Part shown: positions 24,946 to 26,738 of the stretch, one piece after another
Numbering within the stretch: position 1 is the first letter of the stretch
How the letters are laid out: each line of letters opens with the position of its first letter
Origin: a virus
Taxonomy: Duplodnaviria > Heunggongvirae > Uroviricota > Caudoviricetes
Reading direction: 5' to 3' (one strand)
Virus record (IMG/VR): IMGVR_UViG_2541047834_000005
Span: 1 to 44,807 of that record
DNA: 44,807 nucleotides
Notes under the pieces: generated by a model
The model's input: the letters and a program-made list of their open reading frames with translations, nothing else
What the model was told of the DNA's origin: nothing
The model's database searches: none
Made by a program: the position numbers and the translations under genes

Positions 24946-25405
24946 TTACCACCCCACCTGCCTCTTTAAACCGGGAAATCAGGTCACTGATTTTATGTTC
25001 ATACTGACCGTAACCTGCACCAGGTAACGACGCCCAGATATTGCTGCAACGATCGATAGCCTGACGGATATCACCGCGATCAATCATCGGTAAAGCGCCA
25101 CGCTCTTTAATCTGCTGCAATGCCACAGCATCCTGGCTTTTGGGAGAGAAGTCTTTCAGGCCAAGCTGCTTGCGGTAGGCATCCCACCAACGGGAAAGAA
25201 GTTGATAACGGCCTGCAGCTGTTGACTTGAGTTTCGGATTTAGCGTGACAAGTTTGCGAGGGTGATCGGAGTAATCAGTGAATAGTTCACCACCAACAAT
25301 AACGTCATAACCGTGGTTATGTGTCGGTTGTCGCCCGTTATCAGTTCCCTCCGACCACGCCAGCATATCGAGGAACGCCTTACGTTGATTATTGATTTCC
25401 ACCAT
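24929..25405 (-). CDS. R: Endolysin R (lambda-type lytic transglycosylase)
   Basis: 158 aa, near-identical to lambda R as I recall it. Confidence 0.9.
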
Positions 25406-25712
25406 CTTCTACTCCGGCTTTTTTAGCAGCGAAGCGTTTGATAAGCGAACCAATCGAGTCAGTACCGATGTAGCCGATGAACACGCTCGTTATATAAGCG
25501 AGATTGCTACTTAGTCCGGCGAAGTCGAGAAGGTCACGAATGAACCAGGCGATAATGGCGCACATCGTTGCGTCGATTACTGTTTTTGTAAACGCACCGC
25601 CATTATATCTGCCGCGAAGGTACGCCATTGCAAACGCAAGGATTGCCCCGATGCCTTGTTCCTTTGCCGCGAGAATGGCGGCTAACAGGTCATGTTTTTC
25701 TGGCATCTTCAT
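25389..25712 (-). CDS. S: Holin S (lambda S107/S105 dual-start type)
   Basis: 107 aa beginning [20 protein letters not shown]..., lambda S. Confidence 0.9.
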
Positions 25713-26249
25713 GTCTTACCCCCAATAAGGGGATTTGCTCTATTTAATTAGGAATAAGGTCGATTACTGATAGAACAAATCCAGGCTACTGTGTTTAGTA
25801 ATCAGATTTGTTCGTGACCGATATGCACGGGCAAAACGGCAGGAGGTTGTTAGCGCAACCTCATGCCTCCCACTTTCACGAAGATCATGTGTAGAAGGCC
25901 GCAGCGTAACTATCACTGATGAATTCAGGATAGCCAGTGGCTACGGCTCAGTTTGGATTGTGGCGGCCGGAATCGAACCGGCTTCCATCGGTGCGCTGCC
26001 GATTGCAGTACGCGCGGCGGTCAGCTACATGACTAGTATTTTCACTGTCGCCTATCTGCTAGCTCGCCATTGAGCTTCACCACAACGATAAGAGCACTGC
26101 GCGGCACCTTTCACCAATTCCGCGAGGTCTGCGGGTTCAATGCTCTTACCTGTTGTGCAAACAAAAAAAGCCACCGTTGCAACTTAAGAGTCACTAACGG
26201 CAGCTTATGCGAATAGTGTTGCTCATTTGCTCAATGATGTCAACACGTT

Positions 26250-26738
26250 CTATGCTACATGTTTAATTTTCTCTACACGTTTCCGGTTTTTAAACGCACT
26301 ATCCAGAACCGGGTAAATCATAAACAACGAAGCATTGAGGATTTCGTCAACTTCCCGGCGACAGGTTGCGAGCGATGGTTTTTGAATACGCCCGCCGCCA
26401 CGGCATAACATCTTGCGAGGTCTTGCGACACGATGATAGTAAGATGCAATGGCATGCTTGGAAGATCCATGAGCGTAGTAGCTGAGGAGGATGCCAAAGG
26501 CTTTCTTGTCAATGTACATGACGGAATCGACGACCTGAGAAATCAACATTCCGTCATCATCATTGCACATTGGCCTTGTCATAATTCTTCCCGGCTCTAC
26601 GCTCTCCATGAACTTCGCTATTACGCTGCTCATGCGCTTTTCCAGACGACCTGAATAAACCCATGCGCCCCACAGTTCAAGCCAGCCATTCAGCCACTCG
26701 TGCTGTTCTTTGGTGAGGTTTAGTTCTCTTATGCTCAT
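26250..26738 (-). CDS. Late gene antiterminator Q (non-lambda Q family)
   Basis: 162 aa with LELWGAWV...TRPMCNDDDGMLIS motifs typical of a lambdoid Q family; upstream of lysis genes. Confidence 0.7.
   Translation of the reverse strand: MSIRELNLTKEQHEWLNGWLELWGAWVYSGRLEKRMSSVIAKFMESVEPGRIMTRPMCNDDDGMLISQVVDSVMYIDKKAFGILLSYYAHGSSKHAIASYYHRVARPRKMLCRGGGRIQKPSLATCRREVDEILNASLFMIYPVLDSAFKNRKRVEKIKHVA

Follow-up and report, generated by a model that had tools for sequence, protein, structure and literature searches.

A tRNA-like RNA in the Q–S gap

The DNA analyzed here (hereafter the window, meaning the whole stretch of 44,807 nt) is the virus record IMGVR_UViG_2541047834_000005 of IMG/VR, a member of the Caudoviricetes, and our subject is the gap between its antiterminator gene Q and its holin gene S. 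The Q stop codon (26252-26250) and the S ATG (25712), both on the minus strand, delimit a gap of 537 bp at 25713-26249, which confirms the boundaries given in an earlier note on this DNA. On the strand of the late transcript, this gap very probably holds a gene for a conserved, structured RNA that resembles a transfer RNA (tRNA). The earlier note had recognized its T-arm, the motif GCCGG-TTCGATT-CCGGC (minus strand, 25982-25966, inside the interval 25962-25990 that it gave), and had brought up decayed tRNA genes; that reading is wrong, as the T-arm is part of a tRNA-like RNA that is intact, carries a novel arm, and is subject to purifying selection.

The unbiased minimum free energy (MFE) fold of 25950-26095 on the minus strand consists of an acceptor, a D-arm, a very long arm, a 5-bp variable arm, and a T-arm. 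Thus, the cloverleaf that the earlier note could not complete around the T-arm does exist, although not in standard form: a non-canonical long arm replaces the anticodon arm. No open reading frame (ORF) of more than 50 aa overlaps the element, whose parts are the following:

25954..26086, minus strand: tRNA-like RNA, ~133 nt including the encoded CCA (MFE fold, covariation, RNAalifold, covariance model)
26086-26078, minus strand: acceptor, 5' strand
26076-26061, minus strand: D-arm
26059-26056 with 26008-26005, minus strand: proximal stem of the long arm
26055-26053 (AUA) and 26015-26009 (GCGCGUA), minus strand: internal loop of the long arm
26052-26045 with 26024-26016, minus strand: distal stem of the long arm
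26044-26025, minus strand: apical loop
26032..26037, minus strand: self-complementary hexamer ACUAGU in the center of the 20-nt apical loop, a candidate kissing-loop site
26003-25987, minus strand: variable arm
25966..25982, minus strand: T-arm GCCGG-UUCGAUU-CCGGC, with a covarying stem (CG/UA/AU; UA/CG/AU) and invariant G53-C61 and loop UUCGAYU
25965-25957, minus strand: acceptor, 3' strand
25956-25954, minus strand: encoded CCA, directly after the acceptor 3' strand CGCCACAAU

By itself, the T-loop pattern GGTTCRANTCC is not significant in the window (one match versus 0.2 expected, with at least one match in 19 of 100 shuffles). Because the z-score of the single sequence is also weak, we compared the element with its relatives, and it is this comparative evidence, drawn from aligned sequences, that argues for the reality of the feature; the motif alone is insufficient. 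Two seed searches of IMG/VR yielded 141 copies representing 63 distinct variants, from which we aligned 38 diverse variants and scored an explicit structure of 37 pairs. In this alignment, 94.8% of the cells are paired, and sliding the 3' partners by 1-3 columns as a control lowers this share to 29-44%. Both sides have changed in 19 of the 37 pairs, compared to 2-8 pairs in these slid controls. For covariation, the score is 0.308 versus 0.135 in shuffles, and none of 500 shuffles reached the observed values. We weight the slid controls and the counts of pair types above the shuffles, since many of the copies are related prophages. RNAalifold independently recovered the same helices from the same 38-variant alignment, with 16 compensatory pairs.

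Individual helices illustrate how far the sequences have diverged. The T-stem occurs as GCCGG/CCGGC, GCAUG/CAUGC, GCUGG/CCAGC, GUUGG/CCAAC, and GUAGG/CCUAC, and the distal stem of the long arm is wholly different between lineages yet still pairs, as in GGUUCACGG/CCGUGAGUC and GUUUUGCGG/CCGCAAAAU. The acceptor is counted as 9 bp because two pairs outside the usual 7-bp stem covary (GC/AU/GU and UA/GC/AU); stacked on the 5-bp T-stem, it forms a helix of 14 bp. Among helix cells, G.U outnumbers A.C by 70 to 10, which shows that pairing is selected on the late strand only, as RNA and not as a DNA hairpin. The D-stem, the GG of the D-loop, G53-C61, the T-loop UUCGAYU, the variable arm with its loop CAGCGCA, and a GGAA linker are invariant across the variants. 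An encoded CCA is found in the two largest IMG/VR groups, with tails CCAAAC (71 copies) and ACCAAA (22 copies); in one group other than that of the window, the 3' end reads ...CACCACACC-A-CCA. One tertiary contact that we considered, between the GCGC of the internal loop and the GCGC of the variable loop, is unsupported, as the variants G93U and G76A are uncompensated.

The ~55-nt arm at the place of the anticodon stem-loop has a proximal stem of 3-4 bp (GCAG/CUGC or GGG/CCC), a freely covarying distal stem of 8-9 bp, and a loop of ~20 nt. Its asymmetric internal loop is conserved in sequence (AUA on the 5' side, GCGCGUA on the 3' side), and inspection by eye found in it no convincing match to a K-turn, a loop-E, or an 11-nt-receptor motif. 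All 26 loop variants carry a self-complementary hexamer at one fixed position, in the versions ACUAGU, UCUAGA, GCUAGC, UCGCGA, ACCGGU, and UCUGGA (the last via G.U), so that the loop, like that of a kissing-loop RNA, covaries in sequence while staying palindromic. In 139 of the 141 copies there is no second copy of the hexamer within ±300 nt, which makes the same loop on a second molecule the simplest partner. Judging from these loop sequences, homodimerization through the hexamer is a distinct possibility, which we hold tentatively. The kissing loops of the human immunodeficiency virus type 1 (HIV-1) dimerization initiation site (DIS) likewise display a 6-nt palindrome in an apical loop; in the element, the palindrome shifts between lineages and remains a palindrome, and the loop has 20 nt rather than the 9 nt of the DIS. 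Homo-oligomeric RNAs associated with phages are also known, namely ROOL and GOLLD (PMC12286853). Both these RNAs and the element are phage- or prophage-borne and lie beside a tRNA slot, but the element is small and tRNA-shaped.

Upstream of the element, and directly after the T-run of the predicted terminator tR' described below, starts a second structure:

26081..26157, minus strand: 5' leader hairpin, 77 nt, CACAAC-AGGU-AAGAGCAUUG ... hypervariable tip ... CAGUGCUCUU-AUC-GUUGUG

The last six nucleotides of this hairpin are the first six of the acceptor, and therefore hairpin and acceptor stem are mutually exclusive. In the MFE fold of the full precursor, the leader hairpin is formed and the acceptor is open, while the other four arms remain folded. 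The long leader stem refolds in ~30 variants of differing sequence, with versions such as AAUGGCACUG/CAGUGCCAUU, AAAUCAA/UUGGUUU, and AAUCGCUUUG/CAAAGCGAU and a perfect 20-bp version in one variant (L051). By eye, a 'GG...CC-ACCA' subgroup differs in that its leader is complementary to the trailer or else folds into a short hairpin, CCAAAG/CUUUGG. The hairpin accompanies the element in Skatevirus and in a Pantoea phage, and it is also found in lambda. A direct repeat CACAAY lies on the minus strand at 26152-26157 and at 25957-25962 (the acceptor 3' end), and both copies are complementary to GUUGUG at 26086-26081; the repeat represents a toggle designed for strand exchange or else a mark that insertion of the module left behind. 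Altogether, two covarying and mutually exclusive helices suggest ordered folding or processing. A duplex of ~20 bp is a typical RNase III substrate. According to its title, cited as ref 49 in PMC7547250, a 1988 paper by Daniels et al. reports sites of RNase III processing in the lambda late transcript, a possible link that we treat as a lead.

In some variants (L013 and L076), the hypervariable tip of the leader contains extra T-arm-like hairpins (GCAGAGTTCGATTCTCTGC and AGCGGTTCGATTCCGCT). The Q–S slot seems to accumulate tRNA-derived fragments.

Kinship with tRNA and other RNAs

ARAGORN found no tRNA or transfer-messenger RNA (tmRNA) gene in the window: the default, relaxed, mitochondrial, and tmRNA (-m) modes all returned nothing, and we do not trust the intron-containing tRNA at 25954-26085 that its intron mode proposed at a lowered threshold. 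There is no Rfam match at the gathering threshold and none to RF00005 even at E <= 10; the only match at E <= 10 is to tmRNA (RF00023; 18.4 bits, E = 2e-5, threshold 47) and covers just the T-arm and acceptor. The earlier note had taken its reading to be refuted if no RNA gene were predicted and the motif were explained by a conserved non-coding region. Literally, ARAGORN and Rfam predict none, and the conclusion that this was meant to support is nevertheless wrong: covariation shows a structured RNA that neither ARAGORN nor Rfam models. Indeed, default ARAGORN calls a tRNA once the long arm is swapped in silico for a 7-nt loop (the native sequence gives nothing), so the long arm is the only reason that the tools miss the element.

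Measured against a canonical tRNA, the element has a T-arm with G53-C61 (columns 111-119, G-C) and a T-Psi-C-R-A loop, as well as a D-loop with G18 G19, throughout the 38 variants. It departs from the canonical form in that the long arm replaces the 5-bp anticodon stem and 7-nt loop, and in that nine covarying acceptor pairs plus five T pairs give a stack of 14 bp in place of 12. The nucleotides at the position of an anticodon sit in the covarying distal stem and differ between variants; thus, this is not a decoding tRNA. Its acceptor, GG-bearing D-arm, 5-bp variable arm, and T-arm with UUCGAYU and G53-C61 are shared with class II tRNAs, from which it differs in the missing anticodon stem-loop, the 9-bp acceptor, the 14-bp stack (12 is usual, and tRNA-Sec has 13), and A8 instead of U8. 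The real tRNA genes of phages 21, Sf6, L, and 933W occupy the same slot between Q and the lysis genes and have the same 3' boundary as the element.

tmRNA also has tRNA-like ends around an insert that is not tRNA. However, it is ~360 nt long compared to 133 nt and lacks the D and variable arms, both of which are complete in the element. We rejected a tmRNA or mini-tmRNA because there is no tag ORF, no G3.U70 (pair 3 is U-A), and no pseudoknot, and because the score is below the threshold. An alternative hairpin, GCG-CUGC-AAUCG-GCAG-CGC, which is used by the tmRNA model and by a 58-nt 'tRNA-Ser' annotation (see below), was rejected on covariation: CUGC changes to ACCC without a change in GCAG, yet covaries with the 5' GCAG/GGG strand.

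YrlA is a non-coding mimic of the tRNA elbow, bound by Rsr/Ro, with a long helix at the place of the anticodon stem, and YrlA-like RNAs have been reported in Salmonella and some phages. Its topology is the reverse of that seen here: the ends of YrlA lie in the long helix and its acceptor-like stem is capped, whereas the ends of the element form the acceptor and its long arm is capped. We rejected YrlA on this topology, on the absence of rsr/rtc genes in the 40-kb neighborhood, and on the absence of an Rfam match. The Pas small RNAs beside holin genes in Shiga toxin (Stx) phages are different RNAs.

In kind, the element resembles a tRNA mimic, with class II tRNAs and other tRNA-derived non-coding RNAs as its nearest relatives. 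Its combination of a 14-bp stack, an intact elbow, no anticodon, a palindromic loop, and a competing leader hairpin is unusual for a relative of tRNA. The lambdoid Q–S leader is among the most studied DNA; nonetheless, the element is absent from Rfam 15 and is not called by ARAGORN or by the Prokaryotic Genome Annotation Pipeline (PGAP). We found no description of it in Rfam 15 or in the full-text literature, where a mention in journals outside that coverage is possible.

Genomic context and distribution

The genes and sites that flank the element in the window are arranged as in a lambdoid late region:

26250..26738, minus strand: Q antiterminator gene, 162 aa (PHROG 943 'anti-termination protein Q-like', E = 7e-90), upstream
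26238..26243, minus strand: predicted pR' -35 hexamer TTGACA, an exact match that aligns with the -35 of the annotated pR' in HK75 and Sf6
26220-26215, minus strand: candidate pR' -10 AACACT, after a 17-nt spacer from TTGACA, aligning with CATAAT of HK75 and Sf6
26163..26203, minus strand: predicted tR' intrinsic terminator of the phage-21 type, with the hairpin at 26203-26170 followed by U7 at 26169-26163
25389..25712, minus strand: lambda-type holin S (S107/S105), from its translation and from 'phage holin, lambda family' in a near-identical prophage, downstream

The earlier note had suggested a late promoter and tR' from a TTGACA hexamer and from a T7 run preceded by a dyad. The run (26169-26163) and the dyad (26203-26170) are there, and the hexamer is present on the minus strand, although at 26238-26243 and thus 9 nt away from the 26229-26234 that had been noted. 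The promoter directly follows Q, the terminator comes within ~40 nt, and both are homologous to annotated examples, as in the phage-21 type of lambdoid pR'/tR' unit. The tR' region is 100% conserved relative to the annotated tR' of HK75 and Sf6, and its 17-bp hairpin is strongly stable (-20.2 kcal/mol, z = -4.6; none of 200 shuffles equally stable). Homology and the terminator fold therefore support the prediction that these sites are the late promoter pR' and tR'. Simple consensus promoter and terminator scans flagged nothing in the Q–S region, pR' being missed because its -10 is weak and tR' because its loop and bulge fall outside the scan rules. The lambda 6S RNA, StxS, and the short phage-21 transcripts all belong to the type of pR'-tR' unit that lies just upstream of the element (PMC7547250). 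They end at tR', whereas the element lies beyond it and needs read-through, or its own promoter in the case of Skatevirus.

As the earlier note had stated for lambdoid phages, tRNA genes can stand in this slot: Sf6, BTP1, and Oslo have tRNA-Asn plus tRNA-Thr there, and phage L has Asn plus Leu (PMC8022706). The element and the Sf6 tRNA-Thr align at their 3' ends. In CUS-3 and lambda, only the outer stem is kept, around different interiors. Lambda (L144 ~985-1190; NC_001416 ~44,785-44,990) retains the 5' leader hairpin, CACAACAGGTAAGAGCATTGA...CAGTGCTCTTTCCGTTGTG, and a 9-bp closing stem, GTTGTGCTG/CAGCACAAC, that shows compensatory G>C and C>G changes relative to the window; its 66-nt interior is not tRNA-like and is not matched by R1, the covariance model that we built from the element family and used for genome scans. 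From these similarities, the lambda late leader looks like a relic or minimal form of the module. The CUS-3 type (L003 620-950 plus 44 viral contigs, L164-L207) has an identical 9-bp stem around a ~225-nt insert, which has a D-like hairpin (ACGCA-GGCTGA-TGCGT) at its start and a T-like one (GTCGG-AGTTCAGCA-CCGAC) at its end. We considered this insert as a potential larger relative; it matches neither Rfam nor R1, and since its 45 copies are almost invariant, it is beyond a covariation test.

Upstream of the element itself lies a Q gene of any of four families or a gene for an HNH endonuclease, and downstream a holin gene of one of at least five families, which makes the element a self-contained module in the late-leader slot. 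In lambdoid contexts, its orientation is always that of late transcription. In Salmonella Skatevirus, it stands alone in a ~500-bp gap between tail genes of the opposite strand, preceded at ~165 nt by TTGACA-17-TAGATT and followed at ~100 nt by a hairpin with a T-run. On this sequence evidence, the Skatevirus element is a predicted independent non-coding gene with promoter-like and terminator-like sites, and a free-standing gene of this sort argues for a trans-acting product. HNH endonuclease genes adjoin the element upstream in L089 and downstream in L013, in the manner of homing endonucleases at phage tRNA clusters, and by this analogy may help to move the module.

In the window, R1 has one match (25953-26086, 152 bits), and it has none in lambda, CUS-3, or Sf6. 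Full-length matches, ranging from 124 to 155 bits, occur in Klebsiella pneumoniae, Enterobacter, and Superficieibacter genomes and in Pantoea phage PdC23 (124 bits); the Superficieibacter copy has a new compensatory acceptor, GGUGUGACG/CGUCACACC. The element is carried by 175 of 5426 complete Escherichia coli genomes (~3%), always on the chromosome, and by 92 phage records, 83 of them Salmonella phages; HK75 has the same element as the window. It is thus a widespread phage accessory RNA, present in E. coli genomes, HK75, a large Salmonella Skatevirus group, and a Pantoea phage, and its family is phylogenetically narrow (Enterobacteriaceae plus a Pantoea phage). Matches of the D-arm pattern in non-enterobacterial genomes are due to chance (covariance-model E > 0.03). 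A 9.7-kb contig from a Cellvibrionaceae metagenome-assembled genome (L147; JAUVQU010000080.1) contains a copy identical to the HK75-type element (155 bits), and is most likely a misbinned enterobacterial phage rather than evidence of a genuine marine host.

Public records mostly leave the element blank, and where they label it, the label is wrong or partial. Among the 40 E. coli matches listed, nothing is annotated over it except a 'hypothetical protein' in two (H94 and H96), and PGAP leaves the Q–holin gap of a 99% identical prophage without annotation. Three phage records have an annotation over it, namely a 58-nt partial 'tRNA-Ser', a spurious 'polyubiquitin-A' coding sequence, and a 'hypothetical protein'; records with wrong or partial annotation are PQ186186.1 (21833-21890, the 58-nt 'tRNA-Ser'), ON470589.1 / ON470594.1, and OP745621.1. 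tRNA and Rfam scans miss tRNA-derived RNAs with remodeled arms, and R1 can be used to annotate this family.

Candidate roles and alternative explanations

We consider it likely that the element is an intact tRNA-like RNA, and our best guess at its role is that of a non-decoding mimic. Having no anticodon loop, the RNA would not decode, and because it cannot decode, the most probable mode of action is that of a tRNA mimic on a tRNA-recognizing factor. The acceptor, T-stem, and distal stem keep their pairing and are free in sequence. By analogy with the L-shaped fold of tRNA, the invariant D-arm, variable arm, internal loop, and linker would cluster around the core, and such a cluster would be the site where a specific protein binds.

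In the window, the RNA would be transcribed only within the pR' late transcript, after Q-dependent read-through of tR'. The leader hairpin would form first and withhold the acceptor strand; the tRNA fold would become possible through an RNase III-like cut in the leader duplex of ~20 bp, through an exchange of strands that involves the 3' strand of the acceptor, or through both, and RNase P together with 3' trimming would free a stable RNA whose 3' end lies at the encoded CCA or close to it. On balance, we think it probable that the RNA is excised by the tRNA-processing machinery in some such way. It would then act in trans by occupying a tRNA-recognizing protein in late infection, possibly as a loop-loop homodimer, with a host tRNA-targeting defense nuclease or transferase or a tRNA-processing or modification enzyme as candidate partners.

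In the class II tRNA-Tyr, the variable arm is where Septu and retron-Eco7 cut, two defenses that phage tRNAs counteract (PMC13096335). Documented defenses that cut or modify tRNA make a decoy role plausible, and we propose decoy or titration only tentatively, as a function that is rather unlikely to be the right one; if true, it would add an RNA-only counter-defense to the tRNA arms race. Less likely again is the full picture of a class of phage RNA not recognized before, a tail-to-tail homodimeric mimic, gated by its leader and switched on by late processing, that neutralizes a tRNA-directed immune effector or hijacks a tRNA-handling enzyme, with the lambda leader as its relic; we offer it as speculation.

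Several points weigh against this overall reading. RNase P and EF-Tu measure a 12-bp acceptor/T stack, and the 14-bp stack of the element exceeds this, so that the usual tRNA processing cannot be taken for granted. Nor do all copies encode a CCA: among those from IMG/VR, the group with the ATTGTGATG acceptor finishes with CATTAC, and the copies with the Skatevirus-type tail finish with ACTTAA. The MFE z-scores of the single sequence are weak (-1.45 for 25950-26095, and -1.89). The family is shallow, with a mean identity of 85% and an effective sequence number of 1.02 for the model, and the shuffle statistics make the copies look more independent than they are, since many of them come from prophages in related hosts. 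With 6 bp rich in A/U (ACUAGU), the kissing contact may be a weak one, and the near-identical prophage has no suggestive RNA-related partner gene near the element. Processing, stability, dimerization, and function are all matters that we infer.

Of the other explanations, the one that survives best is a cis-acting processing or 'punctuation' element, in which the fold and the leader duplex recruit RNase P and RNase III and the excised RNA is functionless. Its position suits this role, as it lies in the late leader right after tR' and ~240 nt before S, in a slot that real tRNA genes can also fill, and both the leader hairpin and the leader-trailer complementarity seen by eye in one subgroup resemble processing stalks. 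The title of Daniels et al. likewise points to RNase III sites in the late leader of lambda. Nevertheless, we regard it as improbable. The Skatevirus element is free-standing and antisense to its neighbors, with no downstream mRNA to process; an element that served for cleavage alone could do without the invariant variable arm, the conserved internal loop, and the covarying palindromic loop; and lambda manages with the hairpin and the closing stem alone. Even a role limited to signaling processing would account for the hairpin that is conserved in lambda's late leader.

A decoding tRNA with an intron-like insertion in its anticodon loop, removed after transcription, would account for the ARAGORN intron-mode proposal at a lowered threshold (25954-26085), for the passing of the arm-replaced scaffold as a tRNA, and for the one GenBank record in which part of the element is labeled 'tRNA-Ser'. 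We find it very unlikely, because the would-be anticodons vary (GGC, GUU, GGU, GCU, and others), the joined flanks give a loop of 10 nt and not 7, and the acceptor has 9 bp. Moreover, the insertion itself is conserved in its palindrome and internal loop, and there is no Rfam tRNA match at E <= 10. Enterobacteria are not known to have a splicing system for a 48-nt insertion of this sort.

The last two explanations are the least credible of all, and about equally so. A decayed tRNA pseudogene or a functionless recombination scar might be expected in a slot that holds tRNA genes in relatives, where standard tools predict no RNA and where lambda and CUS-3 show the interior to be replaceable or lost, but compensatory substitutions maintain all six helices (the non-tRNA arm included), the loops are invariant across lambdoid, Skatevirus, and Pantoea phages, and carriage extends to 175 E. 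coli genomes and 92 phage records. A DNA-level element, be it a mosaic boundary sequence, a satellite attachment site, or a homing-endonuclease target, is suggested by the CUS-3 authors' annotation of the flanks as boundary sequences, by the CACAAC direct repeat on both sides, by the HNH endonuclease genes beside some copies, and by the fact that tRNA-like sequences are common as attachment sites, but the 70:10 ratio of G.U to A.C indicates RNA-like selection for pairing on one strand, the nucleotides held invariant in the T-loop and D-loop belong to the tRNA elbow, and the orientation in lambdoid contexts is always that of late transcription.

Apart from the element, the gap contains a further hairpin at 25832-25867 (minus strand), GGCATGAGGTTG-CGCTAA-CAACCTCCTGCC followed by GTTTTG, ~120 nt upstream of S. 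The simple terminator scan did not flag this hairpin, for which a weak terminator is one candidate role and a structure at an RNA 3' end or for processing another. Lambda, Sf6, CUS-3, and HK75 all conserve it.

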